DNA of 44,880 nt from a virus (IMGVR_UViG_3300027644_000024:1-44880); one strand, 5' to 3'. Counted from the first letter of the stretch, positions 1,453 to 38,657 are shown. Translations and numbers: made by a program. The notes: generated by a model not told the origin, from the sequence alone.

Positions 1453-1782
1453 CTAAGTATTTAGTTCTTCTGTTTTTTTCATAATTTCATCAAACTTTTC
1501 ATTCCAACCATCTTGACTTTCTTTCCATTTATCTTCTGGGCAACTATCTAATGCAAATGAGACCTTGGGAATAACAAAACATCCACATTTTTTACATTTG
1601 GATTGTTCGTTGTTATCATCATACCACTCACAAGATTTACATATTTCTAATCTTTGTGTTTTTATTTCAGTAGAAACCATAAGAGCACCACTTTGCAGAG
1701 CATTCTTAATTAAGTCAAAACTAAACTTTACTAAATTTTGTCCTTGTTTGGATAGAGAAGGATATTGATGTTCTTCAGTCAT
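1453..1782 (-). CDS. Small Cys-rich protein (DUF6171-like)
   Basis: RLEICKSC...CKKCGC...CPEDKW motif; late-promoter-like box upstream. Confidence 0.7.
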   Translation of the reverse strand: MTEEHQYPSLSKQGQNLVKFSFDLIKNALQSGALMVSTEIKTQRLEICKSCEWYDDNNEQSKCKKCGCFVIPKVSFALDSCPEDKWKESQDGWNEKFDEIMKKTEELNT

Positions 1783-1814: not shown

Positions 1815-4046
1815 TTAAACTAATCTAATTATAATCTTAGAGAACCCAGTGCTTCCACCTAATTGAGTACTTACCACAGTCACAGAACCATCAGTATATC
1901 CACTTCCTCCACCACCACCACAACTATCTGTTCCACCACTACCCCCAGTTGCGCCAGCACCCCCATTACCACCTGCTGCTAGAGCAGGAGGATATGTATA
2001 ATAGGAACAGTCATAGTCTTCATCGTATGAATCATCATAGTCTTCATCATATGAACAATCATATGGTTGGTCATATGAACTATCATAAGTTTCTGTATAT
2101 GAGGTATCATAAGTTTCATCGTATGAACTATCATAAGGAAATCCACCAAGATAATATGGTGTTGGATATGTGTAATATGAACTATCATATGCATCCCCAC
2201 CAGTGGTATATGGTGCAGGATAAATGTAATATGAACTATCATATGATTCTTGTACATATTCTGGGCAGTAAATATTTTGATAAAAACATGCAGCTACGTT
2301 TCCAGTAGCACATTGAAACGCCCACACTCCACATGCACCAGCATATACTTCAACTGTACGTGTACTGGTTTGTTGAACATATATTGGGTCTGGAGTTACA
2401 GTTACCACTGGTGTATAAGAAGTCTGTTGAAAATATACTGGAGGTGGGGTATAGAGATATCTCTCGGTATATGAAGTCTGTTGAACTCTGCGTGTACTGG
2501 TTCGTGGAACTACTCGTGTACTGGTTTGTGGAACTCTTGTGTAGCAAGTGCTTGAAACTCTACGTGTACTGGTTCGTGAAACTCTACGAGTGCAAGTTCT
2601 TGGGTTGTATACTGCGTCAGGGTTTTTTCCATTCTCTCCTTGTCCAGAAGTCTGCCGAATATCATAACCAGATTTAAATCCTCTGGTGATGGATGCAGAA
2701 TTTGTAACTACAATTCCATTTGCAAGAATTATTTTGCTTGTTCCAACATCTGAACAAGGTGATTTACCTTGAGATATCCAATAATTTCCTTTAGGACAAG
2801 GAAGTACTCTTCCTCCAGATTGTCCTGTTGCTTTTGTATCTGAACTGATTGGTGTACTTGAGGATGATGACCCAAAAATACCATTAGATGGTAGTGTTCC
2901 TGGTGCAATTAGTGCCCCACCAGAACCACCACCTCTACCACTTCCAGATGTACCAGCAACGTTAACTCCACCACCTGCTCCACCAGTACCATTAGATGAT
3001 GCATCTCCACCCTTTCCACAAACTGCAATTAAAGTTCCTTTGCGATAAATGAATGGGCAATTATTGAATGATTCTAATCCAGCAATAGTGTACTCTTCAT
3101 TTCTATTCATAGTAAATCTAATTCTGGAATAACCTCCCTGAGCACCACCAATACCACTACCAGAATAAATATCCATTTCAACATTTATATTTGTTTCTGG
3201 GACATATAAAGATATTAAATTTGTTGAACTTATTTGATTTTGTCCCAATAAAGTTAGTTCTCCATCTAATAAATCATGAGAACTTAAAGTTGCAGTCGAT
3301 GATGTTGTATCGTATAGTTCAATGTTTATTAATCTTCTTGGTGAAACAAATTCAATATTAACATTATCAGAAAATATTGGAGTGTTTGATGCAAAAAGGT
3401 TTGAGATTTTTACTTGTAATGTATATGTTCCTATTGGACGTGATATCGTAAGATTTGGTGTGGTAGATCCACTTACTGTTGAATCGTCTGTAAGATTGAC
3501 ACCATTTAACGACCATTGATATAAAAAAGTTCCTTGAGAAGGATCTGTAGATGATGCAACAACATTAATAGTAGCATTTGTATTCTCTACAGCAGATGAT
3601 CCTATTGGTTGAGTTGCAATACTTATTTGTGGTCGTACTAATACTAGTGCGGTGCTTGAATTAATTGGTTCATTAATTGCATTTCCAGTCGAACGTGCCG
3701 TGCCTGCAGTGATTGGTGATGATGATTGATATGCAGATGGAACATAATCTGCTATTACATATACTTGACGTTTATGGTCAGTTGGACTAATTAAATTTGA
3801 TAATGTTAGAGTAGATGTTGCTGCTCCTGTAACATATGTTCCATTAGAGATTGTTCCATTTTGATCGTACCACTGATATGATATATTTCCAGTTGCTGTT
3901 GCAGAATTTGCAGGTATTTGTGTTGGAAATATTGCTGTTGCAATTCCAACAAATGTTGCTATTCCTGCATTATTAACTAAAACATTTTGAGGATTTGTAG
4001 TAAATGAAATAAATGGTCCATTTAGGTCTAAAGTCGTTTGTTTCAT
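1815..4046 (-). CDS. Virion protein with two N-terminal Ig-like domains and a C-terminal Gly-rich domain carrying a mirror-repeat insert
   Basis: Ig-like motifs SYQWY...GAATSTLTLSNL and QP...LYQW...GSTTPNLTI; GGxGG-rich C-terminus ending GGGGGSGY...KIIIRLV. Confidence 0.8.
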   Translation of the reverse strand: MKQTTLDLNGPFISFTTNPQNVLVNNAGIATFVGIATAIFPTQIPANSATATGNISYQWYDQNGTISNGTYVTGAATSTLTLSNLISPTDHKRQVYVIADYVPSAYQSSSPITAGTARSTGNAINEPINSSTALVLVRPQISIATQPIGSSAVENTNATINVVASSTDPSQGTFLYQWSLNGVNLTDDSTVSGSTTPNLTISRPIGTYTLQVKISNLFASNTPIFSDNVNIEFVSPRRLINIELYDTTSSTATLSSHDLLDGELTLLGQNQISSTNLISLYVPETNINVEMDIYSGSGIGGAQGGYSRIRFTMNRNEEYTIAGLESFNNCPFIYRKGTLIAVCGKGGDASSNGTGGAGGGVNVAGTSGSGRGGGSGGALIAPGTLPSNGIFGSSSSSTPISSDTKATGQSGGRVLPCPKGNYWISQGKSPCSDVGTSKIILANGIVVTNSASITRGFKSGYDIRQTSGQGENGKNPDAVYNPRTCTRRVSRTSTRRVSSTCYTRVPQTSTRVVPRTSTRRVQQTSYTERYLYTPPPVYFQQTSYTPVVTVTPDPIYVQQTSTRTVEVYAGACGVWAFQCATGNVAACFYQNIYCPEYVQESYDSSYYIYPAPYTTGGDAYDSSYYTYPTPYYLGGFPYDSSYDETYDTSYTETYDSSYDQPYDCSYDEDYDDSYDEDYDCSYYTYPPALAAGGNGGAGATGGSGGTDSCGGGGGSGYTDGSVTVVSTQLGGSTGFSKIIIRLV
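1992..2600 (-). repeat. Mirror-arranged 24-nt/54-nt coding repeats (xTS/xTC arm and YDxS arm)
   Basis: 8 xT[SC] motifs spaced 8,8,8,8,8,18,18 aa followed by 8 YDxS motifs spaced 18,18,8,8,8,8,8 aa. Confidence 0.9.
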
Positions 4047-4057
4047 TTTACTTTAGT

Positions 4058-7000
4058 TTAGTTTAGAAAGTTTTGACCGACAACCACTCCATAAAGTCCT
4101 ACACTGGTAATATTTCTACCATCAAAAATTTTAAAGGTGTAAATATCAGAACGATTTGCTGTTGGAGTTACAATCGGAAGAACACCACCACCGGGCCAAT
4201 AAACAGGAATTGCAACACTAACAGAATTCCTAAATGTATCAATACCAACAGTACGACCTCCTATAGAATCTTGATCTATTTTAATCGTAAATTCAGTAGA
4301 TGCAGAAGGAGGGTTGAGTAGATTAAACTGAGTAATGTCACTTGTTGCAGTGCAAATAAATGACTGTGCCTTGGAAAGGTCTATGGTTACCTGATTTGAA
4401 ACAACTAATAAGTACTCTATATTTTCACTGTAGGTTTTAAATCTTGTATGTCCTTCAATATCCAAATGTGCTCTTGGTACTGTGGTTCCAATACCAACTG
4501 AACCAATACCAGTTACTGCAAAGATATGTCCATTTGTAGGAACACCTAAAGTACTTGCAGTTCCAATTTGTAATGGTGTAATTGGATTTGTGGTTCCAAT
4601 ACCAATTGATGATGCTCTAATAACACCAGATGAGATGTTATTAATTTCATATGCACTTCTTGTTGTAAGAGCACCTCCAACAAACACACGACCCGTAGTT
4701 ACAAATCCAATAAATGTAGAGGTACCATTTACGTGAAGTGATGTTGATGAGGTTCCAATTGCACCTAGTTCTAAATTAAATCTTGGAACAGAAGTACCAA
4801 TACCAACATTATTAAGTGCAGTATTATAAATGCCTCCAGATATTTGAGTCCATCCAAGTGCAGCAGCATTTAAATTTATAAGAGAACTACCATCACCAGA
4901 GAAATAAGATGCAGTAATTGTTCCACCAATATTTGTATTTCCATTTACATTCAGTTTAAATTGATTTGCAGTGGTTCCAATACCAACTCCACCATTACCA
5001 TCTACAGAAAATTGACTTGTTCCAGAACCTACCAGAAGTTTAGAGTTTCCTGGAGATGTGGTTGCAATTCCTACTTGATCAAAAACATAAACATTTGCAG
5101 TTTTAGAAATGCTAATGTTTCCAAAACGATACCAATCATTATTTTTTGTATAAACCCAACCAAGATACCCACCCCCTGCTGGGGTATCAAAATACTCAAC
5201 ATCACCAGGGTTGCCTGAAAGTATTGGTTCAGTAGTAGTTACAGTATACTTTCTTGAGACTTTTGTATTGCCTTGTAAGAAGATTGAGTTTGTTTCAATA
5301 TCCGAATTTAAAGTAACTTTTTCAGAGAAGATTACTGGACCATTAAACTCAGAGATTGCTGTACTATCGGGACCACCTTCTACACGAATCGAACGACTAA
5401 AATTGCCCTCAACCGCATTAGTTAAATTAAATCCTGGAATATTTCCAGTATCTTCACCAGTTACTGTTTGTATGGGAGTATCAAAGATTTCTTCTTGACC
5501 AGTAACGCTGCTTAATCTCTTATTACCGGCATATGCAGTGCCCTTATCATTCATACCAGTATAGAAGTTAATACCTCCATCTTTTCTAGTTGATTGTGCA
5601 AGTAGTTCTTCTACTAAAGAAATAGAACGATCATGCTTATCGGGGAATGCAGTTGAGTAGTTGCCCGGACCAAATCCAACATACTCAAAGGTGTGCCCAG
5701 AAGCTCTCATAATAGAGTGTCTTCTGAGTTCTACTGAATCAATACGGATTTTTCTTGCAACACTATTAAATGCATGAAAAACTGCACGAGTTCCCAATAC
5801 ACCCCGGAACACATTGATTGGGTTTGTGGGGGGGTTTGAAACAGTTGTTTTGACTCTTACAATCTCATCATCAATCATCAGATAATCACCAATATTAACA
5901 TCAAGATCCTGAACGTTATTAAGATAAATTTCATCAGTCAGTGCATTGGATATAATTGTAGAGAGTGTTGTAGTAATACCTGCATATGTTGGAATCATTC
6001 TTCCATTTAGATTCTCATTCTCACGAGTAATCACTCCATTATTAGAACTCAGACCTTCACGATATGCAAAGAGAGTTCCTGTTGGAGACGAAGCAATTGT
6101 AGAGACTCCAATATTTACAATAAATGTAGTTAATCCCACATTTTCAGTAACAATAAAACTTCCATTATAAAGGGATTCGTTTGCACCAGTAATACGAATC
6201 TTTGTATCTACTTTTAATCCATGACGATTAGTAGTTGTTATAGTTGCAAGACCAACTGTATTATTATAAGTAAGTGAACTAATACCAAGTGATTCACCAG
6301 TTAGAACGGTGATTGCATCAGAAGTAAGAGTTTCTCCAACTGTAGTAGAGAATCCTGATACAGCAGAAGCAGATACTGCGGTGAAGCTCTTTGCAAGACC
6401 AACAGGGACACTAGTAATACGATAGAGATTATTATAATCCTGACATGAAGTAGAAGTTACTCCTGAAATTTGAACTACATCACCAACATTATTATAGATT
6501 TTCGATACTGTAAGAACTGCTTGAGTAAATGGAGCAAAGGTTGAGATACCAGATACAGTTAGTGTATTACCAATTCCATAGGCACTACCACCATCCATTA
6601 TCTTTACATCAGTGATAGTTCCAGAGGCATCAACAGTAATCTTTGCCGTTGCATGACTACCAACAGTAGAAGCACCAAATCCCACAAGACTTGTATTATA
6701 AAAATTTGTTGCAGTACTAGTGCCTATACCCAATCCACCATTGGTGATAGTAACTCTTGTGATACGATTCAGTCCGTGGTCTATTGTTGTATGAATGTCG
6801 TGTGAAGTGGATGATGTAGACCGAATATCAGTGAGTCCAACACCAATCTGACTATCATTAAATACTTTGTGAATTGTTTCTTTGGTTAAACTCTTACGAA
6901 CATTATTAACTACAACTTCTCCGATGAGTGAAGAAGACGCAAAAGATTGTGCTTTTTCTGGGTCTGCTTCTGGATTATCACGGTTGATTTGAGGGAAAAG

Positions 7001-9934
7001 TTCTTTGACTGATTGTGAAAACTTTTCTGCTGTAAATGGAGCAATACTTGGAGAGTTTGATGCATTCGTGAGAGTTAAGTAATAAACTCCATCTTGTTCT
7101 CCATTAATATATTTTTGTACTTCTTGACTTCTAAAAATAACATAAGTATTATTAAACTTCTTTCTTTTAAAGTATGGAAGTGCTGTTGTTCTTAAAGTCG
7201 TATCATTCGTAAATGTACCAGGATCGGTAGTTCTTGCATAAGTAAAAGTCTTAGAATTAGGAATAGCAATAACATTATAAGTTCCATTAAATCCAGTAAA
7301 TGTTGTTGCAGTTCCAGTGGTATTATTGGTGCTCTTAACTTGTAGAATCTCAACTTGAGATCCAATTGAAAGATTATGAGTAAGTTCTGTTGTAATTGTT
7401 GCAACATTAGAACTCCAATTTGCATTTGCAATAAACTTAAAGTTTCTTTGTTGAGTTACATTTGCAATTGACCCACTTCCAAAATAAGTTTGTATTTCAG
7501 TATCAGTAGGTCCAATAGATGTATTAGATTCCTGAATAATAAATCCATCACTTGGTGGCTTAGCAATCGAACCATCTTTAGGAAGAACATAACGAACACG
7601 ATAGATTGTATCAATTACATTACGATTATCTACAAGACGACTAATATAAGTTCTCGGAGTCGCAGCACCTAAAGAAGTGGTTCCGAGACCTACAATAGTT
7701 GAGTAGATTGTATTTTCAGTAGATGCTGTTGCAACATTAATATACCATTTACTTTGTGTAGTATCAAACTGAATTGGATGTCCGACTTCTCCGGGATTTT
7801 TATCTGATACACGGCTTACAATACTTAATATTCCACCTTTATTATTAACAGTTAATGCAGATGCATTAATTGCATCATTTTGTCTTTGTGCAATTTTAAC
7901 CTGATTTGTTCCAACTCCTGCAGTAATTGCATAATAAACATTATTAGGAATTAATCCGTCTGGAAGTTGTCCAGTATCACTTAAAACACGAATACTCTCA
8001 CCTGATTCAAAGGTATGTGGAGCAGTTAAAGTAAAGGTATTCGAGGTAATACTATTAATTCCTCCAACAGATCTATTAACTGTGAAAATCTTTTCAGAAC
8101 TGGTCTGCGAATTCGGCATTACAATTCTTGCACTATAAGAAGATGCTGTTCCACCAACTGATATAAATGCATTCAGAGTATCATTCTTTTTTGCACCAAC
8201 ACGATAACCTTCCAGAACATTTTGAGGGGGAACGTCAGGATTGGTTTGGGAATAAAGATAAAGATGTCCCGTGGATGCAACACCGACAACAGTTGTACTT
8301 ACGTCAATTGCATTAAACTCAATTGTTTTTTCAGTTTTTGAGAATTCTTTTGGTGGAATAGTGTGTGTAATGTACCCCCTATCGTCTTGTGGGAATGCAT
8401 TTTTTCTAAATCCTTCTGCAACCAGTGCTTTTGCACCAAAGTTAGAGTTAGAGTTAGTGATGGACATATCTCCACCACTTTCAACAATAAATTGATCTGC
8501 ATAACCAATCGCAAATACTGATACTGCTTGAATGAATGAGTCATTAATGACTTTAAGGTGAAAGTTGCGATACGTTGGCTTAAAGATTGCTCTTGAATTA
8601 TTGCTTAAAGTTTCATTCCCGGTAACAGTGCTATCTTGATAAATTCCAGAGGTTTTATCATAAATTACAAATGCATTATCATCTTTTTGCAGACCAATTC
8701 CGGTGAACTGTGCAACAACCATTGACTTAAATCCAGTTGCCTTGCTTCCATCTGCAAGTAATCCACACATACCAAAAACAGAACGCAGAGATATGTTAAA
8801 GATGTATGGTGATGCAGAAGTAACGGTATCTGACTGAAGTGTTAAGACAGCATTTGGAACTGTAGGAAGTGGGTTTACTGGTGCATTTTGTACTTGATAT
8901 GCAATTTGAGTATCACTTAATTTTTCAGTTACAACAAACTGACCATTATATCCAGGTGCAGTAACGCCACTAATTCTAAATGGAGTATCAACATCTAAAC
9001 CAGGAACCGCAGATGTAGTTGTAACTGTAATAATTTTTGTAGAAACAGCACCATCTCCAGCACGAATACTTGTAATTCCTGAAACTTCTCCTGTAGATCC
9101 TACAATTCGGAACTCATCAATTTTTGGTTGAATATCAAGACTAGAACTTGGATAATCAGGTGAAATTTGACGACCTGATGATTGTCCATATGCAAGACCA
9201 ACCTTCTCATAATACATCTCAAGATCTGTACGATCTGTAGAGTAAGTTTGGAAAGTATCAGCAATACGTACATCATTTACACCATCAGCATACTCAAAAC
9301 AAGTAAGTTTATGATGTGAGAAGTTAGGAACAAATTGATTGTTTGTATAATCAACAAAGCAGGTTCCATTTGGATCTGCATCAAAAAGTGAGAACTGCCA
9401 AATATAACACCCACCAGTGACTCTAAAGATACAAGATCTTTCAATATTATCATTATCTGGTTTTGGTACATATAAAGGTCTTATTTTTGTCTTTCTTAAA
9501 TCAAGACCAACAATAGAAGTACCACGAGGAATAATAACTCCACCGTGAATACTATTCAGTTTATAAAGTTGATTATTCGGATCTAGTAAATCAAAACTTG
9601 TAGTTAAATCAAATGGAGCATAGTCATTACTTGTTACTCCACTACGAAGTCTATAATTATTTGCACCGTCCGGAATCCAACCAGGACGATTATCAATAAT
9701 GTGCTCTCCAGGATATAGAAGAATTGTTGTTTTTCCAAATCTGTCGTTATTTAATCCTTGCTGATAAGAAAATCTTGCTGATTCTATAAGAGCACGTTGA
9801 ATTGTCCTGAAAGGACGTGTTAATGAACTTCCTACGTTCTGAACAGAGTCCGTTGCATCAAGACTGTTAGGATCTACATAAATGATGTTTCCACGAATTG
9901 ATTTAAGAAAATTATCAAGACGACTTAATCCCAT
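4058..9934 (-). CDS. Large conserved cyanophage virion structural/tail-fibre-associated protein
   Basis: N-terminus MGLSRLDNFLKS...PFRTIQRALIE recognised from cyanomyoviruses; Thr/Gly-rich beta domains, GIGTTxP repeats, fibre-type C-terminal domain (YWPGG...DIYTF). Confidence 0.8.
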   Translation of the reverse strand: MGLSRLDNFLKSIRGNIIYVDPNSLDATDSVQNVGSSLTRPFRTIQRALIESARFSYQQGLNNDRFGKTTILLYPGEHIIDNRPGWIPDGANNYRLRSGVTSNDYAPFDLTTSFDLLDPNNQLYKLNSIHGGVIIPRGTSIVGLDLRKTKIRPLYVPKPDNDNIERSCIFRVTGGCYIWQFSLFDADPNGTCFVDYTNNQFVPNFSHHKLTCFEYADGVNDVRIADTFQTYSTDRTDLEMYYEKVGLAYGQSSGRQISPDYPSSSLDIQPKIDEFRIVGSTGEVSGITSIRAGDGAVSTKIITVTTTSAVPGLDVDTPFRISGVTAPGYNGQFVVTEKLSDTQIAYQVQNAPVNPLPTVPNAVLTLQSDTVTSASPYIFNISLRSVFGMCGLLADGSKATGFKSMVVAQFTGIGLQKDDNAFVIYDKTSGIYQDSTVTGNETLSNNSRAIFKPTYRNFHLKVINDSFIQAVSVFAIGYADQFIVESGGDMSITNSNSNFGAKALVAEGFRKNAFPQDDRGYITHTIPPKEFSKTEKTIEFNAIDVSTTVVGVASTGHLYLYSQTNPDVPPQNVLEGYRVGAKKNDTLNAFISVGGTASSYSARIVMPNSQTSSEKIFTVNRSVGGINSITSNTFTLTAPHTFESGESIRVLSDTGQLPDGLIPNNVYYAITAGVGTNQVKIAQRQNDAINASALTVNNKGGILSIVSRVSDKNPGEVGHPIQFDTTQSKWYINVATASTENTIYSTIVGLGTTSLGAATPRTYISRLVDNRNVIDTIYRVRYVLPKDGSIAKPPSDGFIIQESNTSIGPTDTEIQTYFGSGSIANVTQQRNFKFIANANWSSNVATITTELTHNLSIGSQVEILQVKSTNNTTGTATTFTGFNGTYNVIAIPNSKTFTYARTTDPGTFTNDTTLRTTALPYFKRKKFNNTYVIFRSQEVQKYINGEQDGVYYLTLTNASNSPSIAPFTAEKFSQSVKELFPQINRDNPEADPEKAQSFASSSLIGEVVVNNVRKSLTKETIHKVFNDSQIGVGLTDIRSTSSTSHDIHTTIDHGLNRITRVTITNGGLGIGTSTATNFYNTSLVGFGASTVGSHATAKITVDASGTITDVKIMDGGSAYGIGNTLTVSGISTFAPFTQAVLTVSKIYNNVGDVVQISGVTSTSCQDYNNLYRITSVPVGLAKSFTAVSASAVSGFSTTVGETLTSDAITVLTGESLGISSLTYNNTVGLATITTTNRHGLKVDTKIRITGANESLYNGSFIVTENVGLTTFIVNIGVSTIASSPTGTLFAYREGLSSNNGVITRENENLNGRMIPTYAGITTTLSTIISNALTDEIYLNNVQDLDVNIGDYLMIDDEIVRVKTTVSNPPTNPINVFRGVLGTRAVFHAFNSVARKIRIDSVELRRHSIMRASGHTFEYVGFGPGNYSTAFPDKHDRSISLVEELLAQSTRKDGGINFYTGMNDKGTAYAGNKRLSSVTGQEEIFDTPIQTVTGEDTGNIPGFNLTNAVEGNFSRSIRVEGGPDSTAISEFNGPVIFSEKVTLNSDIETNSIFLQGNTKVSRKYTVTTTEPILSGNPGDVEYFDTPAGGGYLGWVYTKNNDWYRFGNISISKTANVYVFDQVGIATTSPGNSKLLVGSGTSQFSVDGNGGVGIGTTANQFKLNVNGNTNIGGTITASYFSGDGSSLINLNAAALGWTQISGGIYNTALNNVGIGTSVPRFNLELGAIGTSSTSLHVNGTSTFIGFVTTGRVFVGGALTTRSAYEINNISSGVIRASSIGIGTTNPITPLQIGTASTLGVPTNGHIFAVTGIGSVGIGTTVPRAHLDIEGHTRFKTYSENIEYLLVVSNQVTIDLSKAQSFICTATSDITQFNLLNPPSASTEFTIKIDQDSIGGRTVGIDTFRNSVSVAIPVYWPGGGVLPIVTPTANRSDIYTFKIFDGRNITSVGLYGVVVGQNFLN

Positions 9935-9964
9935 TTTATTAAAACTAATGATTCCGTTATAGAT

Positions 9965-9971
9965 TATTTAT
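9965..9971 (-). promoter_or_regulatory. Late promoter-like box ATAAATA
   Basis: tatttat 30 nt upstream of ORF start 9934. Confidence 0.6.
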
Positions 9972-10009
9972 CACATAACAAAACCCCCTGAGGAGATTTA
10001 AGGTTAATA

Positions 10010-10174
10010 TTAAATTAATGATTTACTGATAAGATATTCAACAGTATTTGCTACATCATTTATTGCATCACGAAGATTTTCACTTTGACCTGATCCCATA
10101 TCAAAAGTAATTGGATCTGTAATAGTCCATCTCCATTGCTTCATATCTTTGTTATGCCAGATATTTATGATCAT
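10010..10174 (-). CDS. Small hypothetical protein, 54 aa (below ORF-track cutoff)
   Basis: MIINIWHNKDMKQWRWTITDPITFDMGSGQSENLRDAINDVANTVEYLISKSLI*; fills the intergenic gap and is codirectional. Confidence 0.7.
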   Translation of the reverse strand: MIINIWHNKDMKQWRWTITDPITFDMGSGQSENLRDAINDVANTVEYLISKSLI

Positions 10175-10200
10175 TTTTATACCAAAAGGTATTGAGTGTA

Positions 10201-10237
10201 AATTTTTGCCGGGATTTTTTGCTCCCTAAAATGGAAT
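10201..10237. repeat. Dispersed intergenic motif, copy 1
   Basis: aatttttgccgggattttttgctccctaaaatggaat, near-identical to 36941-36977. Confidence 0.85.
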
Positions 10238-10420
10238 TTAAAATGGATTTGCGTATGAGAGAGTTTTTTCATCTACAGTTGCACGAACCAACTCTAATAC
10301 ATTCATAAATTGCTCTACGGTTTCACAGAACACTTGCTTCTCATTACCCTCATTGGAGTAGAGATACACTGTTCGATTAAGAGGATCGACCACACATCTG
10401 GTCAGGAACTCGTCTTGCAT
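10238..10420 (-). CDS. Small conserved cyanophage hypothetical protein
   Basis: 60-aa ORF directly behind a consensus sigma70 promoter. Confidence 0.75.
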   Translation of the reverse strand: MQDEFLTRCVVDPLNRTVYLYSNEGNEKQVFCETVEQFMNVLELVRATVDEKTLSYANPF

Positions 10421-10446
10421 TCGGTTTGTTTTTTGGACACTAATGC

Positions 10447-10475
10447 ATTATAGGGCATTTGGAGGGTGGTGTCAA
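10447..10475 (-). promoter_or_regulatory. Consensus sigma70 (early-type) promoter
   Basis: TTGACA (10475-10470), 17-bp spacer, TATAAT (10452-10447). Confidence 0.85.
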
Positions 10476-10482
10476 GAACAAA

Positions 10483-12700: not shown

Positions 12701-15700
12701 TTATAAGGGTGTGTACATTTCAATTGTTGGATATTCAGTAAATCCAAAACCAGGGTTAATAATAGCAACCCTGATTACTCTTCCGAAAGATCCAAAAATC
12801 GGTTCAAGAATAGCACCATTACTTGGAGTTATTCGAATTTTATCAGTTACATTATAATTGATTCCTGGGTCTTCTACAAGGACATATTTTAATCTCAAGG
12901 CTACTGGGTAGGTTGAGGTTTGGACTGGATCTGGAACAAATGATGGTGGGAAATAATCTCCATCACCAACAATACTGGTACTACTTAATGTTGACTGAAC
13001 TGTTCCCGGAATATTTAGTAGTGGATCATTACTTCTTATATCAGTACCTTGTCTTAATATTGCAGAAGGTGGAGTAATAATCTGTGCAAGAATACTTTCT
13101 CTTAAAGTATCATATACTATTACTGGTTCCCCAACAGTTTCATAGAAACCTGCATAACGAATACCTCTATCATAATAAACAGAACCATAGTAAGGTCTTC
13201 CATTTACATATCCAGTCTGCTTAAGACCCACAAGATCAGTTACTTGCAAAAGTTTTTGAGGGTCTGGTGTGATTGCGTCTCTTATAACTTCAAATTGTGG
13301 TATAAATCGTGCATTAACACCTGTTGGTGGTCCAGAAGGTGGAATTATTGTGATGAGGGTAGGAGTACCATCACCAAGATCACCACCAGGATCACGAGGA
13401 TCACTAAGATCACGAGGATCACCACCAGAATCACGAGGATCACCACCAGAATCACGAGGATCACGAGGATCACCACCAGGATCACGAGGATCACCACCAG
13501 GATCACGAGGATCACCACCAGGATCAGTTCTACCAATACCAATAAAAGTACCAGAACCTGTGGACCCTATTCCTGGTCTTGGACGATTACCACCACTGGT
13601 TATAATTATCTCTGTTACTACACCTTTACCCCTAATAAGTCTAGGGCAGGGAGGAGGAATTAGAATCGCACCAACACCTACAGGATTATCTCTCCAAGAT
13701 TCTTCTTGTATAGTACCCTCACGAAGAATGGTCTCTGAATAATTTCTTGTTATTTCTACAGAAGTGACCACAGGATTTTCTCTAAATCCGGTATTTGGAA
13801 AACTAAGGTTTGAAAGTTCTAATTGTAAAGTCCTTCTTCCTTTTGTTGCATTAAACGAGGATTGTTTAAAATTCTCTCCATCGGCATTTAGATCATGTCT
13901 TCCCACCTCTACTCCATCAACTCGAATAATTACTAAGTCATCTGCTAGTGCAGTTAGATTGTATTTACCATCTTCGGGGAAATCAACATTTTTCCAAGTC
14001 ATAATCCAAGTTTTTCCTTGAATTTCATCTGTTGGAGTCAAAGTGTTTTGAATAAGTGGAGAAATGAAACCAGGAACATAACTTGTAAGAGTAGGACCTT
14101 CATAAGTCACACCATCGTTAGCAGTTCCACCAGTTAATCCTCCGATTATTGTAGTTTTTGCTGTTTCAGCAGCAACCTGCCAGTCTAATGTTCTAAAAAT
14201 CTTTTGAGAGTGGGAGGTTGTGTCAAATATTCCTGCTGTTGTTGTAGTGTTATTTTTAATATCAATTCTAATATTATGAAGACCTTTTTCAAGTTCTATT
14301 TTTTTGCTACGTTCTCCAGTAGTTCTAGTTTTTATTGGTGGTGTGATTGTATACCCATTTATTTCCACACCATCCACGTAAATTGTAGTAGTATCATCTA
14401 AATCATTTTCTGTTACAAGTTTATAAAACCCCCTATAAGGAATTTCAATATCCCAAGAGGTTGATTGTTGATTTCCTCCTTGACCACTACCGGGAGTTTC
14501 TAATGGTTTAAATGGTGAGATTGCATAACGATTTAAGAAATTACTCCATGGATCGGTAGTAACAATATTTGTTTCTTCTTTTGTGGTTGGTGGAGTGGAA
14601 GAACTTTCTAAAACATAAACAATCTCACTTGTTAATATTGTTGCTGGTGTTATTGGTGGTGCTAGTGTTATTGATGCTGGTGTTATTGGTGCTACTGTAG
14701 GAGCATAAAATGCAATACCCTCACTTTGAAAACCCTGGCCAGGTAATGCTGATATTTCATTTATATCTGTAGTATAAAAATGTTCCCCTGGAATTGGTCC
14801 AAGACCTCCAGGATCTCCAGGGGGATTATAAAATCTAAAAACTTCAATTCGATCTGGTCCTGGTTGTGAATATACATAACCAACAATCCCTTCAAAGGAA
14901 TATCCACTTCTTATTGCAGAACTTTTTTCAGTATCACTAATTGTATATAAATGATCTCCACCAGAAAATAGACGATAAAGTGGTACTATTCCTTCAACAT
15001 CTATAGTTTCTCCAAACATTTTCCACCCAATTCCTTCAAGTTTCAAAAGATTAAAATCTATGAATTCTTTTGCTGGATTAGTAGTAAAAAAGTGTGTTGC
15101 ACCTGCTTCTCCACTAAAGTCTTTAGTAAAATACCTAAGCATATCAATCAATACTATAGGGGATGCAAGTGCTGGTACTTCTCTTGGTAATTCTTTTGTA
15201 TTAAGTGTTTTAAAGATACCCCCTCCAGGTGGAAGAATTACTTCAATTTCATTGTTATAATTTCTATACTTAGATCCCTGTCTTACAACACCAGCATCTT
15301 CTTTTTTTCTGATTGTAGCTGCCCAAGCAACATGAAACTCTGACATAAAATAAATGGTGTTTAGTCCTTCATTTAATTTAATTGTTATTTTAGTTGTTTC
15401 TTTTTGGTTTTCAAATAAAGTAACTTTTGTAGGGCCTGCAACAGGAACAATTCTGTCCTGCATCTCACTGATTGGATCTAATCTATATACCACACCAGTT
15501 CCCACGTTTCGTGTGCTAAAAATTGCCTCCCGGTTGATAGCAATTCTAAATGAATTTCCTGGGGGGGTTACTTTTTTAGCATCCAAATAAGTATAATAAG
15601 TTCGTAGTTCTAAGTTTCCTACACTTACTTCCAGTTCATATTCTCCAGCATAGGGAGCATTAATGTACCTCCCCAAGAACCCACCAGACATAAAAATCAG

Positions 15701-18700
15701 AGGACCCCTATCATCAGGAACTTTAACTGCATATCGTTTTAAGAAAGAGTTCCACTGAGGTTCTGGTGTATAATCAGTCGGATCTGTGGATTTAGTACTA
15801 TCATAACCATCAATTGGAAGTAATATTCCTTGTGATACAACATTAATATTTTTAATACCAATTCCATTTGTTCTTGTGTCCCATATTAACGTCCCAGATG
15901 AGGTGTCAGTGTAGGTTTCAGTATCACTGGTGCCTTCAGATAATGTAGATGCATAAATTTTAGTTGATTCTTTCTTTTCATCTGGTTCAATAAGTCCTTG
16001 TATTAATTTTTGTTGGATCTCTTTACTTACATGATTTGCTACAACGTTATAAATTACATTTTTTCTTACTTGTTGCGGATTAATTATTATTTTTTTATTT
16101 TCCGAAAACCCATTGATAGTAAATGAATCTAGTTTATCAGTAGAAGTAAAGGTGAATGAAAAATCACTGGGACTTGTGGAACCTGGTGCTGCTTTTATAG
16201 TGGCAGCTTTGCGTAGTATAGGATCACGCGATGTTCTAATAATTTCACCTTTAAAGTTTTTTAATATCCAATATCCACCAGAAGGCCCACCGAGGTTTGT
16301 GATCACCATTTTAATTTCATAGACTCCATTTTCGAGAGTCATTGACTTACTTATATTGTTAGTCCGAAAATGCGATTGTACATCTCCGGTCAACTCTTCC
16401 GTAATAAAATCTTGTGATCCTGCTGATAATGTAAGTTTGATTTCATTATCCGCACCATATTCAAAGTTATAGGTGTCTGCTAGAAGATCAACCGTATGGG
16501 TTATATCAAATTTCTCTCTAACAGGCACCCAATCCCCATTACCCCCAGCAGATGCTCCGGGAAGTGGTGGAGCACTTGCATATGTGTTCATTTCACCGGA
16601 CCAAATTCCTATAAGATTGACAGGAACCCATGAGTTTCGTATTTCTGATAATAATTCATCTGGTGGTGCTGCTGCTGTAGTATTACCATAAACATTAAAT
16701 CCAACTTCTTCGGTTTCTGAAACTGAAGTTGTTTCTATAGATGGTGCTGCTGCAACTTCAATTATTTTTTCAATTTTTTCTCCAAAATAATTTACAGGAT
16801 ACCAATATTGTCTTGGAGGAATTGTAGAAAATCTTGTTGTCCAAATTGGATTATCGGGGCATCTACCTTCTTGTTTTGGTATAGGTTCTTTGGGAATTGT
16901 TGGTTCTGGTGCATCAATTGTGAGTGCAACACCCATTGGATTATCGTACCAAGATGGTGGTTTTATTCTTGTGATTGTTGTGCTGCCTGGTGTGGTGTCT
17001 ACTGTTGATAAAAGTATGGTTGTTGTGGGTGGTGATGGTAGTATTAATGAAGAATGAAGTCTAAATTGCATACCATCTTGTCCACGGGGCTCAGATGTAG
17101 TTAAAACTCCTCCTCCTCCACCACCACCACCACCGGCAACAATAATATAAGTCTTGAGAAAAGCATCGTAAACCGCAGTAGCACCACCACCACCACCACC
17201 ACTAGATCCTGCTATTGATTCACCACCATCACCACCGGAAGCAACATCACTTACTCCCCCTGCTCCACCAGCAATTGCTGCGATACCTCTTGGTGTGGAT
17301 ACTACTTTACCATATATACCCGCATTTCCTTTCTTACCAATTTTAAGGTCTAATGATTTTGCTCCATCTGAAAGAGTAAATGTTCCCATTCTACCTAAAC
17401 CACCGGTCTCATCATTACCTGCATTGGTTCCTCCGTTACCGCCACGAGCAGCCGCAACTGTAACTTTAATATTTGTTGCTCCTGGTGGTATTGTTACACC
17501 AACATTTTCTTCATAAGTTTTATTAAATGATCCTTCCAGTGTTGTATATTCAATCGTAACATATCCATTATCTAATTTATTTGTGATGTCAGGTGATTGA
17601 AGTGTTGCTATTGTTTTTTCATATTTTGATTTACCACCGTATCCCCCTCTGGCCGCTACACCAGTGAGAGCTCGCGATTGTCCATAACGAGAAGAAAGTC
17701 CAGTTACTCCCGCATAGGACCCTCCAGATCCTCCAGGAGCGCCACCACCACCACCACCAGAACCACCACCACCAGCCTCACCAGATCGGGCACCTCCCGC
17801 AAAGTCAAAACCTTTCTTACCCGCACTAATAGGAATAGGTTTAATACGTTGTCCTGCTGGTCCAGCAATGCCCGATGATGCTACTGCTTCTATATTAGTT
17901 GGAGTAGTTGGGGCATTAAATAACTCAATCCTAATAGTATGAGGTCCTCTTGTAATGGTTTTCTTTATTTCCCCAAATCCACCATCCTCTCCTATTTTTT
18001 CTCCATCAACAAAATTCTTATCAAAAATACCTAGTGGACTAGGATGTTTTTTGATGTCAGCAATTTTTTCATTATCAATATATAACACTGCCTCATTATC
18101 ACACAATCCTCTAAATGTATACTCACCATCTGTTGGAAAATCTTCGTTCCACAAAAACGTAAAATCTTTATCAGAATAGTCAGTACCCTTTACATTTGAC
18201 GGAGAGACTGGTGAGATTGCATATGTGTTCATAAAGGAAGTAAGATCTACTTCTTCTTTAGGTGGTACTAGCACCGGATCAGGTTGCGTTGTTGGAGATC
18301 CTGTTAAAACATAAGTAATCTTACTTATTGATATTGTTTCTGGTGTTATTGGTGATGTTGGTTCTCCAACAACAAAAGAGCATTTATTATCCTTAATATT
18401 AAAGAATTTTCCTTTATCAATATTAATAGAAGCATCAAGAGTACCAATTCCAGCATCTTCATATTCAATAAAAGAATCATTTCTTAGTATTATAGTGCCG
18501 CCAGGACTTCCATTATTAAAAAATTCTACCTCATATACTTTTCCACTTTCACAATTTTTTGTTATATTTTGATCGATTCCAGTTTTGCTTGGTTTAAATA
18601 TATCAATGCCAAGTTCAGTTATTTTATAATTATGAGTATTAGAAGCATCCTGCTTTCCAAAAAATTTAAAGTTAACATCAATAATAGTAGATGATGCTGG

Positions 18701-20620
18701 TGCAGGAATTTCTCTTGGCAATTCTCTTGTATTAATAGACTCAAATATACCTCCTCCAGGTGAAAGAGTTACTTGTGCATCATTATCACTACCACTACCA
18801 AGTACATCAACGAAAATTTTACTTGATTGCTTCTTCTCATTTGGTTCAATAAGTCCTTGTTTTAATAACAAGTTGCCTTTATGATTTGCATTAACCGTAT
18901 AAATTACATTTTTTCGAATTTTTTGTTTCTGAATATTTTGTAAAGACTCAAGAGTAAATGTATCTCCCGAATTATCAGTAGCAGTAAAAGTGAATGAAAG
19001 GTCAGTGGGACTTGGTGTTGATGTTGATGTAGTGATTGGTTGAGTGATTCTTCTAAAAAATCCACCTGAAGTTGTGAGAGTAAAAGAAGTAACTCCTTCA
19101 TATTTAATGGGAGTATAGTTATTATTATCAGCATCTTCTGGTCTAAACTTATCAACTAGTGCAAAGGCATTCACGGATTCTTGAAGTAATGCACCCATGA
19201 ATCCACCCCCTTCTCCTTCTGCACCTCTACCAGTCAAACGTTGAATATGAGTTATATACGGAATCCAGGATTGGTTTGATCCATAAAATGCAGTATTTTG
19301 ATTCAGTTCAACATTAGCATCATTAACCATTCCAGCAGCCATTCCAATAAAAAGATCGGATTGTTTATACTCTGGATTTGGAACAATCGTAATCGGACCA
19401 TAAAGTCTTCCTCCCTTTAGAAATACTTCTCCTGCAAAATCACCACCCAAAGGTCTTGCTCCAGGACCTACGGTTTTTGCTTTGCCATCAGGACCCCAGG
19501 AAACAATACCAACCTCAGGAATATTAAGTGATGGTCCAACAGTAAATAATGCTCCAAAATTACAATAAACTTCTTCATCGGCACGATATTGTGTTAAATC
19601 AAGGTAAATTCCAGGGGCACTTGTAAAATGTCGTAAGGTTGGTGCTGATACAGATGCTATAGTAAATGAAACTTCTTCGGTTTCTGAAATTGTTGATGGT
19701 GGTAGTGCTCCGACTGGTGGTGATAATTCTTTTAGTTTTCCTCCCCAACTCCAATGAGTAACATCATATTTTAAAGGAATAATTGGTAAATCATCACAAG
19801 TAATTGATACTGATTTTGCAGTTCTTGTAGTCCAAAAAGGATTTCTTGATATTCTTCTTACGATATCTTGATAGACTTTAATTTCATCAAGAATTGGATC
19901 TGGTCCTGGGTTCATATAATTTTTGGGATCCCAGTCTCCTACATCTATTCCATTAATGCTCCAGGTTTTTCCATATGGAGGATCAGGTTCACAAATTTCA
20001 TACTCCTCAAAATCTGCTTCATTATCATAAGACTCTGTTGTCTGTGTAACTCCACCAATAATTGAAAGAAACGTTGCACCAACTGTATAATTGCAATGAT
20101 CTCTAGCAGTAACAAGTGGTGGATATTTATACCCATTACCACCACGAATAATATCTACTGCAAGAATACTATTATCATTACCAATAACAGGGTTTGCAGC
20201 AGCACCAATTCCACCACCACCAAAAATTTGAATAGTTGGATCACCACATTCTTTCTTTTGACTAGCTCCCCCACACTCATCCTTTGGTACAGAAAAAACC
20301 TCAACGGGATCTAACTTATTAACCTCACTAATACTTAAATATTTAACTGTTTGATTATTATCTTTAATAATAAAAGTTGTTCCAGGGTCGTTTTTAGCAT
20401 ATTCATTTGCTTCACAGATTGAAACATCCTCAACATATCCTAGAATAGGATCAATATAACCTACTTTAATATTATCTTTTGTTGCTGGTCCAAACAGATT
20501 AAAAGTAGTAGTTTTAGTTATGGTTTTGCCGGAAGAATCTGCACTAACTTCCGTAGTACTGAATGTGTTTCTACTACTTGGTGTACTGCCACTACTAGAT
20601 TGTCCTCCCGAATATGTCAT
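12701..20620 (-). CDS. Giant mosaic baseplate/virion protein with multiple PA14-like domains, a Gly-rich domain and a DUF5648-like domain
   Basis: PA14-like motifs DGEYTFRGLCDNEAVLYID and DGKYNLTALADDLVIIRVDG; HFFTTN/HLYT/HFYTT triple repeat; GGxGY beta-repeats at both ends. Confidence 0.75.
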   Translation of the reverse strand: MTYSGGQSSSGSTPSSRNTFSTTEVSADSSGKTITKTTTFNLFGPATKDNIKVGYIDPILGYVEDVSICEANEYAKNDPGTTFIIKDNNQTVKYLSISEVNKLDPVEVFSVPKDECGGASQKKECGDPTIQIFGGGGIGAAANPVIGNDNSILAVDIIRGGNGYKYPPLVTARDHCNYTVGATFLSIIGGVTQTTESYDNEADFEEYEICEPDPPYGKTWSINGIDVGDWDPKNYMNPGPDPILDEIKVYQDIVRRISRNPFWTTRTAKSVSITCDDLPIIPLKYDVTHWSWGGKLKELSPPVGALPPSTISETEEVSFTIASVSAPTLRHFTSAPGIYLDLTQYRADEEVYCNFGALFTVGPSLNIPEVGIVSWGPDGKAKTVGPGARPLGGDFAGEVFLKGGRLYGPITIVPNPEYKQSDLFIGMAAGMVNDANVELNQNTAFYGSNQSWIPYITHIQRLTGRGAEGEGGGFMGALLQESVNAFALVDKFRPEDADNNNYTPIKYEGVTSFTLTTSGGFFRRITQPITTSTSTPSPTDLSFTFTATDNSGDTFTLESLQNIQKQKIRKNVIYTVNANHKGNLLLKQGLIEPNEKKQSSKIFVDVLGSGSDNDAQVTLSPGGGIFESINTRELPREIPAPASSTIIDVNFKFFGKQDASNTHNYKITELGIDIFKPSKTGIDQNITKNCESGKVYEVEFFNNGSPGGTIILRNDSFIEYEDAGIGTLDASINIDKGKFFNIKDNKCSFVVGEPTSPITPETISISKITYVLTGSPTTQPDPVLVPPKEEVDLTSFMNTYAISPVSPSNVKGTDYSDKDFTFLWNEDFPTDGEYTFRGLCDNEAVLYIDNEKIADIKKHPSPLGIFDKNFVDGEKIGEDGGFGEIKKTITRGPHTIRIELFNAPTTPTNIEAVASSGIAGPAGQRIKPIPISAGKKGFDFAGGARSGEAGGGGSGGGGGGAPGGSGGSYAGVTGLSSRYGQSRALTGVAARGGYGGKSKYEKTIATLQSPDITNKLDNGYVTIEYTTLEGSFNKTYEENVGVTIPPGATNIKVTVAAARGGNGGTNAGNDETGGLGRMGTFTLSDGAKSLDLKIGKKGNAGIYGKVVSTPRGIAAIAGGAGGVSDVASGGDGGESIAGSSGGGGGGATAVYDAFLKTYIIVAGGGGGGGGGVLTTSEPRGQDGMQFRLHSSLILPSPPTTTILLSTVDTTPGSTTITRIKPPSWYDNPMGVALTIDAPEPTIPKEPIPKQEGRCPDNPIWTTRFSTIPPRQYWYPVNYFGEKIEKIIEVAAAPSIETTSVSETEEVGFNVYGNTTAAAPPDELLSEIRNSWVPVNLIGIWSGEMNTYASAPPLPGASAGGNGDWVPVREKFDITHTVDLLADTYNFEYGADNEIKLTLSAGSQDFITEELTGDVQSHFRTNNISKSMTLENGVYEIKMVITNLGGPSGGYWILKNFKGEIIRTSRDPILRKAATIKAAPGSTSPSDFSFTFTSTDKLDSFTINGFSENKKIIINPQQVRKNVIYNVVANHVSKEIQQKLIQGLIEPDEKKESTKIYASTLSEGTSDTETYTDTSSGTLIWDTRTNGIGIKNINVVSQGILLPIDGYDSTKSTDPTDYTPEPQWNSFLKRYAVKVPDDRGPLIFMSGGFLGRYINAPYAGEYELEVSVGNLELRTYYTYLDAKKVTPPGNSFRIAINREAIFSTRNVGTGVVYRLDPISEMQDRIVPVAGPTKVTLFENQKETTKITIKLNEGLNTIYFMSEFHVAWAATIRKKEDAGVVRQGSKYRNYNNEIEVILPPGGGIFKTLNTKELPREVPALASPIVLIDMLRYFTKDFSGEAGATHFFTTNPAKEFIDFNLLKLEGIGWKMFGETIDVEGIVPLYRLFSGGDHLYTISDTEKSSAIRSGYSFEGIVGYVYSQPGPDRIEVFRFYNPPGDPGGLGPIPGEHFYTTDINEISALPGQGFQSEGIAFYAPTVAPITPASITLAPPITPATILTSEIVYVLESSSTPPTTKEETNIVTTDPWSNFLNRYAISPFKPLETPGSGQGGNQQSTSWDIEIPYRGFYKLVTENDLDDTTTIYVDGVEINGYTITPPIKTRTTGERSKKIELEKGLHNIRIDIKNNTTTTAGIFDTTSHSQKIFRTLDWQVAAETAKTTIIGGLTGGTANDGVTYEGPTLTSYVPGFISPLIQNTLTPTDEIQGKTWIMTWKNVDFPEDGKYNLTALADDLVIIRVDGVEVGRHDLNADGENFKQSSFNATKGRRTLQLELSNLSFPNTGFRENPVVTSVEITRNYSETILREGTIQEESWRDNPVGVGAILIPPPCPRLIRGKGVVTEIIITSGGNRPRPGIGSTGSGTFIGIGRTDPGGDPRDPGGDPRDPGGDPRDPRDSGGDPRDSGGDPRDLSDPRDPGGDLGDGTPTLITIIPPSGPPTGVNARFIPQFEVIRDAITPDPQKLLQVTDLVGLKQTGYVNGRPYYGSVYYDRGIRYAGFYETVGEPVIVYDTLRESILAQIITPPSAILRQGTDIRSNDPLLNIPGTVQSTLSSTSIVGDGDYFPPSFVPDPVQTSTYPVALRLKYVLVEDPGINYNVTDKIRITPSNGAILEPIFGSFGRVIRVAIINPGFGFTEYPTIEMYTPL
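13370..13525. repeat. Imperfect tandem repeat of 9/12/21-nt units encoding (D[PS]GGDPR)n
   Basis: atcaccaccagg and atcacgagg units; 13 GATC sites counted by eye. Confidence 0.9.
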
Positions 20621-37235: not shown

Positions 37236-37908
37236 TCGTTGCCCCAGTATTGTGATGTACAAATTCTTTGATATAACGAACTAATAACTTAATATAATCC
37301 CCTTTGTTTCTTTTGTCAAATACCTTCACTTCTCCACCAGGTGTAACCATAATAGTAATTAATTTAACAGGAACAATCTCAGTTAATTCATAGTATGCAG
37401 CAGCATAGAATGTTTCCTGAACGAAGTAATTTTCAAGCCACTCTTCTGGTTTAATTTTTTCGGAAGTCTTAAAGTCTATAACAGCAAGTTCTCCATCATA
37501 CTCTCCAATACAATCAACTCGTCCAGCAAGTCCAAAATACTCGGAGTAGAGTGTGCGTTCAATCGCATGAATATTGCTTATCTTATCCAAATAAGGTTTC
37601 GCATGATAGAACATAAACTTTGATGTGGGTTTATAGTTCTCCCATACAAGTTCTTTATTTTCCAAATAGTCCTGACAGACTTGGTGGAAATCAGTTCCTC
37701 TTGCTGTTGCTTTTTTTGTAATCCGGTTTGCTTCTTCAAGACCTACACGTTTCCTCCACTTAACAAAAATCTCACGATTATAAAATGAGGTCACAGTAGT
37801 GATTGAAGGAACCCACTTACCACTTGGTAAGTTATACAAACGAATGCTCTCTGTAGTCTTACAATTTAACTCAAGGTCACCCAAGTAATTATGATGAATA
37901 AATGTCAT
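37225..37908 (-). CDS. PD-(D/E)xK family exonuclease
   Basis: PSITTV, RGT.FH, AGRVDCI...IDFKTS, Q...YA motifs. Confidence 0.85.
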   Translation of the reverse strand: MTFIHHNYLGDLELNCKTTESIRLYNLPSGKWVPSITTVTSFYNREIFVKWRKRVGLEEANRITKKATARGTDFHQVCQDYLENKELVWENYKPTSKFMFYHAKPYLDKISNIHAIERTLYSEYFGLAGRVDCIGEYDGELAVIDFKTSEKIKPEEWLENYFVQETFYAAAYYELTEIVPVKLITIMVTPGGEVKVFDKRNKGDYIKLLVRYIKEFVHHNTGATNGE

Positions 37909-38657
37909 ACACCGATTTTCATTTTTGCAGTAATATATTCTTTAACAAATCCAGATCTTACAATATCCTCTACATCAAATTCAATAATATCAATTGATGG
38001 CATTACTCTTAGTATTTTCATAAAGTCAATGATACCATTCTTTTCATTAGTTCTTATCAAGTCAGATTGTGTAGCATCACCACAGAACATAATTTTAGAA
38101 TCTTCACCAACACGAGTAATGATAGAATCAAGTTCGTGAAAGTTTAGGTTCTGAAACTCATCAACAATAATGATTGATTTATCTAATGTAGTTCCACGAA
38201 TAAATGAAGTACTCCAAAATTTAATAGTTTCTTGTGATTTTAAATTTCCATAAAGCATTTCGAAAGACGCTTCATCAGGCAACTCAAACATATACTTTAC
38301 CATATTCTTATAAGGAATTTGATAAATATCAGACTTATCTTCATGAGATCCTGGTAAAAACCCAATTTCTCTAGTGGCAACGAGTGAACGAACGATATAA
38401 ATTTTTTCATATGGTGTTTTCTCATCTAAAACATCTCTAAGAGAATTATAGAGGGTAATAAAGGTTTTACCTGTACCAGCACATCCATATGCAACAAGAT
38501 TTTGATTTTTCTTATAAGAATCAAAAAGTATTTCTTGATTCTTTGTAAGAGGTTCAATCACTCTCATTATATCTTGATTGATTGGTTTCTTGCGTTTAAT
38601 TTGTTTGGCAGTCATTCCAACCTCAATTGGTTGTTCGCCTCTTCTTCTTCGTGACAT
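37905..38657 (-). CDS. phoH: PhoH-like ATPase
   Basis: Walker A GCAGTGKT; REIGFLPG; FIRGTTL; IIVDEFQN; CGDATQSDL; DIVRSG. Confidence 0.95.
   Translation of the reverse strand: MSRRRRGEQPIEVGMTAKQIKRKKPINQDIMRVIEPLTKNQEILFDSYKKNQNLVAYGCAGTGKTFITLYNSLRDVLDEKTPYEKIYIVRSLVATREIGFLPGSHEDKSDIYQIPYKNMVKYMFELPDEASFEMLYGNLKSQETIKFWSTSFIRGTTLDKSIIIVDEFQNLNFHELDSIITRVGEDSKIMFCGDATQSDLIRTNEKNGIIDFMKILRVMPSIDIIEFDVEDIVRSGFVKEYITAKMKIGV

Follow-up and report, generated by a model that had tools for sequence, protein, structure and literature searches.

We found that a 743-aa protein from the tail cluster of a T4-like cyanomyophage harbors two complementary repeat arms that mirror each other on either side of a small cysteine-rich tip, the whole being inserted in a domain predicted to be glycine rich. 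This insert probably folds, within one chain, into a ribbon that is locked in register and stapled by disulfides; by analogy with known phage adhesins, the variable tip that it carries would serve to recognize the host surface.

The protein is encoded in a 44,880-nt stretch of viral DNA (here called the window), a phage genome fragment that also encodes PsbA, PhoH, ThyX, gp32, gp59, and baseplate and tail-tube proteins. The sequencing runs that hold the window best are freshwater or lake metagenomes. Within the tail cluster, the insert-bearing open reading frame (ORF) is placed between the gene of a 1958-aa tail fiber and a DUF6171 gene (Table 1). Its orthologs Bellamy gp28, S-SM2_031, and P-TIM68 gp021 are annotated as hypothetical, and each comes immediately after the same tail fiber gene, whose product in the window is 60% identical to the fibers of Synechococcus phages S-SM2 and Bellamy. 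Elsewhere in the window, a 27-nt repeat (9-aa unit) at positions 1-80, in the ORF at 1-1422, reaches the contig end and may be the cause of the assembly stopping there. About 550 nt just upstream of the tail fiber gene (9935-10482) hold no ORF of at least 80 aa, and a 2639-aa protein (12701-20620, minus strand) combines PA14 and DUF5648 domains with a Gly-rich stretch (near aa 940-1170) and a GDPRDP-type repeat (near aa 2365-2415). A promoter scan of the window stayed at chance level (11 found versus 13.0 expected).

Table 1. Coordinates of the insert-bearing protein, its parts, and other genes in the window
Feature	Position (nt)	Strand	Remarks
Tail-cluster gene downstream, cut at contig end	1..1422	-	phrog_8215
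DUF6171 gene, 109 aa, six Cys	1453..1782	-	Pfam PF19668, E 1.3e-7, above cut-off
743-aa ORF bearing the insert	1815..4046	-	PHROG 24848 (phrog_24848) family
Predicted glycine-rich domain, C-terminal part, aa 683-743, closing the domain after the insert	1818..2000	-	From model
Descending Tyr/Asp-rich arm, aa 599-682, 8 motifs	2001..2252	-	C664 codon 2055-2057, C680 codon 2007-2009
Tip (knob), aa 567-598, with C572, C579, C587, C594	2253..2348	-	Two helices in the insert model, strands in the full-length model
Ascending Arg/Thr-rich arm, aa 483-566, 8 motifs	2349..2600	-	C485 codon 2592-2594, C501 codon 2544-2546
Predicted TNF-like/glycine-rich domain, N-terminal part, aa ~237-482	2601..3338	-	Match to the glycine-rich domain (GRD) of ALK
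Two predicted N-terminal Ig-like domains, aa ~10-236	3339..4019	-	Model match to MuSK Ig1-2
1958-aa tail fiber gene, immediately upstream of the 743-aa ORF	4058..9934	-	phrog_529; same order in annotated relatives
phoH	37905-38657	-	Typical of cyanomyophages
thyX	38942-39667	-	Typical of cyanomyophages
psbA	43176-44237	-	Typical of cyanomyophages

The motifs of the ascending arm start at aa 483, 491, 499, 507, 515, 523, 541, and 559 (spacing 8, 8, 8, 8, 8, 18, 18) and those of the descending arm at aa 602, 620, 638, 646, 654, 662, 670, and 678 (spacing 18, 18, 8, 8, 8, 8, 8), and the centers of all eight motif pairs fall on one mirror axis (i+j=1165). Cysteines occur in the stalk solely as C485/C680 and C501/C664, and four more lie in the tip. 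Every one of the 8 + 8 motifs, the mirrored spacing, and the cysteine positions that a reading of the DNA sequence alone had reported is present, exactly as described. That sequence-only reading had also claimed that charge is matched unit by unit. Charge is indeed graded per unit, +3 standing against -4, -5, and -3 and +1 against -2 and -2, but it is not balanced, the arms carrying +10 (ascending) and -21 (descending), so that each stalk is net acidic (-11). There is no His in aa 483-682. With the same intervals, a mirrored order would arise by chance in 1 of 21 cases, and the two cysteine pairs of the window alone were reached by half of 2000 shuffles (p = 0.50). The window by itself gives modest, only suggestive evidence for the mirror; strong support comes from the homologs.

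The insert was reproduced by contigs of the DNA runs X3 and X5 (1884-2397, 1867-2120, and 2091-2685) with 0 differing letters, which rules out an assembly artifact. A DNA palindrome origin was also rejected, as each arm is made of internal direct repeats and the arms are not inverted copies of each other; the inverted matches listed between them are only short (13-17 nt). One RNA run holds 1902-2085 and 1493-1774, which is no proof of transcription; coverage of the window by the RNA runs X15 and X16 is incomplete, and the uncovered parts carry no weight.

A search with the insert recovered 27 proteins, of which 26 had an insert of the same type and one was a compositional match. We compared the distance from the outermost cysteine to the knob with the return distance, leaving out the truncated P0021 and counting P0001, the window's own cluster. 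In 23/23 Cys-knob orthologs, the two arms differ by no more than 1 residue (21 orthologs) or 2 residues (the other 2), with lengths of 12, 19, 69, 87, or 113 aa, and 46/47 inner ascending stalk cysteines in 28 orthologs have a cysteine at the mirror position, both counts overstating the independent events, whose true number is far smaller, since the orthologs are related. The single exception is one unpaired cysteine in P0017; the anchoring outer pair was excluded from this count, and 20 descending-only cysteines (19 knob cysteines and one in a globular knob) were set aside. The inner pairs occur at eight distinct offsets (8, 16, 24, 32, 40, 48, 58, and 76). The insert is accessory, being absent in 26 of the 35 family loci. 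In a tree of the body, P0004 (span 197) belongs to a 100/100 clade whose five other members have spans of 160-164, and one protein lacking the insert falls among insert carriers, indicating that the body evolves more slowly than the insert.

A second host protein, smaller and Gly-rich, with six members, bears this stalk and knob as well. The arms match in P0022, P0218, and P0219, and in P0219, compared with P0218, a 32-aa block is duplicated in one arm and a matching 35-aa block in the other. The ascending arm is longer in the other three members, by one extra octamer in P0023 (6 versus 5 eight-mers) and by three extra 18-mers each in P0125 and P0220, where the cysteines number 5 versus 2 and 8 versus 5, respectively. 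The proposed co-variation of arm lengths and cysteine positions in homologs therefore holds among the orthologs and breaks down in half of the second family; arm symmetry is not strict in this second family, for which the sequence-only reading's own refuting observation of unequal arms in homologs applies. The unequal arms may be assembly errors in near-identical repeats, or they may be real intermediates in which the surplus units serve as a linker at the base.

At the position of the knob, the relatives listed carry nothing, a bare turn (P0028 and P0029), a knob with four cysteines, or unrelated globular domains (roughly 110-160 aa), the latter on stalks with one to seven Cys pairs. The stalk motif is kept while the tips swap among relatives. 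P0010 keeps the outer knob pair only, which suggests that the knob cysteines pair as C572-C594 and C579-C587.

A DUF6171 gene lies immediately downstream in 5/5 loci with a four-Cys knob, all close relatives and one of them the window's own sequence, and in 0/30 other family loci. L316, which has three stalk pairs and a globular knob, is among the loci without DUF6171, so that the gene tracks the knob and not the stalk. Among 53 viral loci with a DUF6171-type motif (those with enough flank, of 80 listed, L016-L095), a Cys-rich ORF was found within 2.5 kb upstream in 23 and downstream in 2 (Wilcoxon p = 4e-5), and these upstream ORFs are of many unrelated types. In a Gly-rich control, 0/40 loci had a Cys-rich ORF on either side, the matched gene itself being uncounted. 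One further case is gp053 of S-SRM01 (L137:2883-3971), annotated as a gp37-gp38 adhesin tip. Its Gly-rich part contains a Cys-rich insert, and the gene is flanked downstream by DUF6171 and upstream by a tryptophan halogenase gene. Speaking against a fixed role, no Cys-rich neighbor was present at 30 of the 53 loci, and several cultured phages carry DUF6171 in other contexts. We found no mention of DUF6171 in the open-access literature. Its gene neighborhood makes DUF6171 a candidate maturation helper for the four-Cys knob, which could act as an oxidase, a chaperone, or a metal donor.

We modeled the insert (aa 464-743, 19 close homologs) and the full-length protein (42 mixed homologs) with AlphaFold2. 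The insert model is one long two-stranded hairpin with a two-helix tip (block pLDDT 72-92 over the insert, pTM 0.25), and the full-length model, with a mean pLDDT of 69 and a block pLDDT of 42-68 over the stalk, builds the tip as strands. In both models, every strand pair is symmetric about i+j=1163 (7/7 and 9/9), two residues off the cysteine axis of 1165. Register 1163 gives 10 direct Arg-Asp/Glu salt bridges, 0 like-charge pairs, and 17 hydrophobic pairs, compared to 2, 0, and 6, respectively, on the cysteine axis, and the same offset of -2 gave the most salt bridges in 5 of the 7 other zippers tested, with a tie in P0127 and second place in P0126. In the predicted register, Arg stands opposite Asp/Glu, Val opposite Tyr, and Thr opposite Asp. 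Because the strands follow register 1163 rather than 1165, the paired cysteines are predicted to be diagonal neighbors on one face and not direct partners, a less usual geometry. Of the proposed single-chain antiparallel hairpin with a small tip and facing Cys pairs, the long hairpin was recovered, whereas the cysteines came out diagonal.

Foldseek searches of the PDB and BFVD with the hairpin model returned generic long hairpins only. A wide structural search with the same model placed 3 of 48,161 chains at Z ≥ 2 (best 3.3), and β-pore-forming or collar β-barrel stems reached at most TM 0.15 and Z 3.3 among the matches listed. In the ESM Atlas, there was no usable match for the insert, and P0126 matched only Gly_rich_2 clusters, at 0.82-0.83. 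A lack of fold matches beyond generic long hairpins is no proof of a new fold. A complex prediction of the fiber C-terminal trimer with the N-terminal 240 aa scored 0.02 against a mark of 0.32 and carries no weight either way.

The N-terminal part of the model matched MuSK Ig1-2 (Z 12.4, rmsd 3.7, 177 aligned residues), Ig_3 was matched in 20 of 42 alignment members (E ≤ 0.05), and aa 1-240 of the full-length model contain no helix of at least 4 residues. The body model (range 261-743) matched the ALK GRD 7ls0 (Z 14.1, rmsd 3.0, 183 aligned residues, 14% identity) on both flanks of the insert, with aa 386-462 at low confidence in the full-length model. These matches to tandem Ig domains and to the ALK glycine-rich domain bear out the Ig-plus-Gly-rich body that had been proposed. 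The insert is predicted to leave from a loop of an ALK-type TNF-like/glycine-rich domain, an architecture of phage adhesins. A Pfam search gave 0 families for the window protein, and the stalk had no match above the curated cut-off; Cornifin was matched via the 8-mer Cys repeat in relatives, above the cut-off only in P0126, and we read this match as compositional. Searching the PDB by sequence yielded nothing beyond Gly-linker and weak Ig-type matches, and a second structural search with the full-length model gave Ig domains only. Five orthologs (P0082, P0087, P0089, P0091, and P0103) have C-terminal extensions of 250-550 aa past the Gly-rich domain, and P0104, P0111, and P0116 have domains inserted among the Ig-like units, so that the protein is modular at several sites.

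We also found the zipper outside this protein family. When 1.84 billion representatives were searched with a profile, 85 matches were obtained, among which, by motif count, 8 new proteins and the ortholog P0105 had both arms; the others had one arm or were unrelated low complexity. Mirror Cys pairs number 12 in P0126, six in P0127, 9 in P0128, 6 in P0131, and 8 in P0146, each above all 2000 shuffles in a test that ignores periodicity and therefore overstates low p-values. By this test, neither the window alone nor P0149, P0150, or S-SRM01 gp053 reached significance. P0126 skips two Cys positions, in both arms, and the six pairs of P0127 enclose ~690 residues. The basic arm precedes the acidic one in P0127 and P0128, and the order is reversed in P0126, P0131, and P0146. 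P0128 corresponds to WP_161625133.1 of Carboxydothermus ferrireducens, and MBO7642159.1, from an alphaproteobacterial metagenome-assembled genome, belongs to the P0127 cluster. Judged by its sequence pattern, the same zipper occurs in unrelated proteins, some of them bacterial, and in either arm order. Apparent signal or membrane segments were seen in zipper proteins among P0126, P0131, P0146, P0127, and P0128.

Blind DNA-pattern scans for single arms told little: of 45 loci for the acidic arm, only L267, and of 24 loci for the basic arm, only L316, fell within a real ORF that had a mirrored partner. The remaining loci looked like short off-frame matches. The 270-aa ORF of L267 (3003-3815 of the reverse strand) is an unrelated phage protein with a short zipper around a Cys-rich tip, and a DUF6171-like gene lies ~920 nt downstream of it. 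The family profile showed no homology to S-SRM01 gp053 (probability 0.7%). A wider idea, which we put forward tentatively although it is quite possible, is that of a portable, length-tunable class of single-chain β-ribbons, with complementary Arg/Thr/Val and Tyr/Asp/Glu octamer arms in either order and paired cysteines, by which phages and bacteria could display any domain at a set distance, phage DUF6171 being a dedicated maturation factor for the Cys knob.

For the window protein, we propose that the two nonidentical but complementary arms of one chain would zip into a long two-stranded β-ribbon, the charge and aromatic pattern setting the register while the protein folds in the reducing cytoplasm. 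Cross-strand disulfides, which likely lock the ribbon, would form afterwards, either assisted by DUF6171 in the case of the four-Cys tip or through oxidation by air once the cell has lysed. Reach would be tuned by adding matching units to both arms; at the β-strand rise of 3.3 Å per residue, 84 residues would give a rod of up to ~28 nm here, less with Pro kinks. The ribbon would project its exchangeable tip from a loop of a glycine-rich tail protein resembling gp38 and Pam3 gp24, and the tip would reach its receptor through the surface layers of the picocyanobacterium. We infer the disulfides, the virion location, and receptor binding alike; a search of the open-access literature gave no virion proteomics for any ortholog. 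A role in host recognition is likely by analogy with the gp38 loops and the Pam3 fiber.

The hairpins could instead assemble between chains, three of them giving a six-stranded needle similar to the T4 gp37 tip, or many of them a β-tube similar to the phi29 lower collar, with the cysteines bonded or metal bound across chains. Trimers are formed by Pam3 gp24, the phage protein closest in architecture (PMC9942802), and by the gp37 needle, which binds seven irons through His (PMC6957217), and the unpaired cysteines of P0125 and P0220 could link chains. The phi29 collar was moreover the top Foldseek hit of the insert model (E 4.8e-4), but the two share a long hairpin only (TM 0.15, rmsd 22.9). With arms that lack His, a complementarity already satisfied within one chain, a net charge of -11 per stalk that would disfavor bundling, and a zipper recurring in unrelated proteins in either order, we regard such assembly as unlikely. 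It is also unlikely that the hairpin is real but only a spacer or a nonspecific capture filament (for drag, for particle or mucilage adhesion, or for metal scavenging by the acidic arm and the cysteines) and no receptor probe. The optional nature of the insert, the bare turn at the tip of P0028 and P0029, and the strongly acidic stalk would suit such a filament; the exchange of tips for unrelated globular domains on a conserved stalk motif is what would be expected of a display platform, and the insert lies between Gly-rich motifs, by analogy the position of the gp38 specificity loops.

Finally, the insert could be a low-complexity, disordered repeat expansion, its mirror a by-product of DNA duplication and its hairpin an artifact of prediction. 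Each arm is a direct DNA repeat, the full-length model has low confidence over the stalk, and AlphaFold2 can yield confident artifacts on repeats. Yet the two arms are unrelated in sequence and are no inverted DNA copies of each other and still change length and gain cysteines together, their complementarity peaks sharply at one register, and the two Cys positions skipped in P0126 are common to both arms, all of which makes this explanation highly improbable.

If the single-chain ribbon is correct, it would represent a new building principle for phage host recognition, in which reach is set by the number of paired repeats in a single chain, and it would provide viruses of lake picocyanobacteria with plug-in tips. 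It would also offer a natural case of two separate repeat arrays that evolve in concert under structural constraint, the unequal-arm forms being candidate intermediates. The maturation of disulfide-rich phage parts inside a reducing cytoplasm could be put to a concrete test, and DUF6171 would gain its first testable role. In protein design, a small monomeric rod open to insertions at its tip would be useful as a nanoscale spacer. In the open-access literature, we found no description of such a phage appendage. For an analogy with Planctomycete YTV repeats, no paper was found in the same literature.

Like that of T-even gp38 (S16 gp38; Straboviridae), the gene of the window protein follows the long tail fiber gene, and both proteins have glycine-rich motifs with variable segments between them, the variable part being exchanged modularly (PMC12032242). 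According to that source, the gp38 loops between the Gly-rich motifs set host or receptor specificity; these segments are four-residue turns, in contrast to the one ~200-aa loop, predicted to be a rod, of the window protein (PMC12032242). Moreover, the N terminus of gp38 is an attachment domain that caps the fiber trimer, whereas here two Ig-like domains were modeled. As to the polyglycine II sandwich, the window protein has Gly-rich motifs and its model resembles the ALK GRD, with aa 386-462 at low confidence. The gp38 family gave no match in Pfam or PHROGs, and no gp38 chain is among the structural matches listed. The fiber of cyanophage Pam3 combines TNF-like and Gly-rich domains, and the Pam3 virion holds disulfides (PMC9942802). 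Pam3 gp24 is, like the window protein by its predicted fold, a cyanophage tail protein with both domains. In contrast to the window protein, for which no helix of at least 4 residues was modeled in aa 1-240, gp24 carries a helical bundle at its N terminus; it forms a trimer, and its described disulfides tie the fiber to the wedge; a long hairpin insert is not described for gp24 in the accessible part of the source (PMC9942802).

The glycine-rich domain of ALK/LTK (7ls0, 7nx3, and 7lrz) resembles the predicted body fold, but it belongs to an animal receptor kinase ectodomain without such a stalk, and a common fold shows no function. In the T4 gp37 needle, the chain follows an out-and-back path. 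Like the predicted ribbon, the needle is a phage receptor-binding rod with its tip at the far end (PMC6957217), but it is an obligate trimer with His-bound iron, whereas here the arms have no His, Cys pairs and charge complementarity lie in one chain, and length varies by repeats. The bovine ultralong CDR H3 is also a two-stranded stalk that rises from a loop and bears a disulfide-rich knob (PMC8602281), as the predicted stalk with its Cys-rich knob would be. The whole CDR has just over 50 residues, the knob distance is conserved, and extension is not beneficial (PMC8602281). The arms described here, in contrast, are repetitive, range from 12 to 113 aa, and have their own Cys pairs, and the bovine stalk and knob sit in an antibody VH, whereas this insert sits in a Gly-rich domain C-terminal to Ig-like domains. 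Cross-strand disulfides, as proposed here, are found in theta-defensins and protegrin-like hairpins, which are short peptides with closely spaced rungs (a cystine ladder). Here, the rungs are 8-18 residues apart, the rod is predicted to be much longer and is part of a large protein, and the cysteines co-vary in pairs. We regard the protein as a glycine-rich, phage adhesin-like tail protein that is not a member of the gp38, gp24, or gp37 families.
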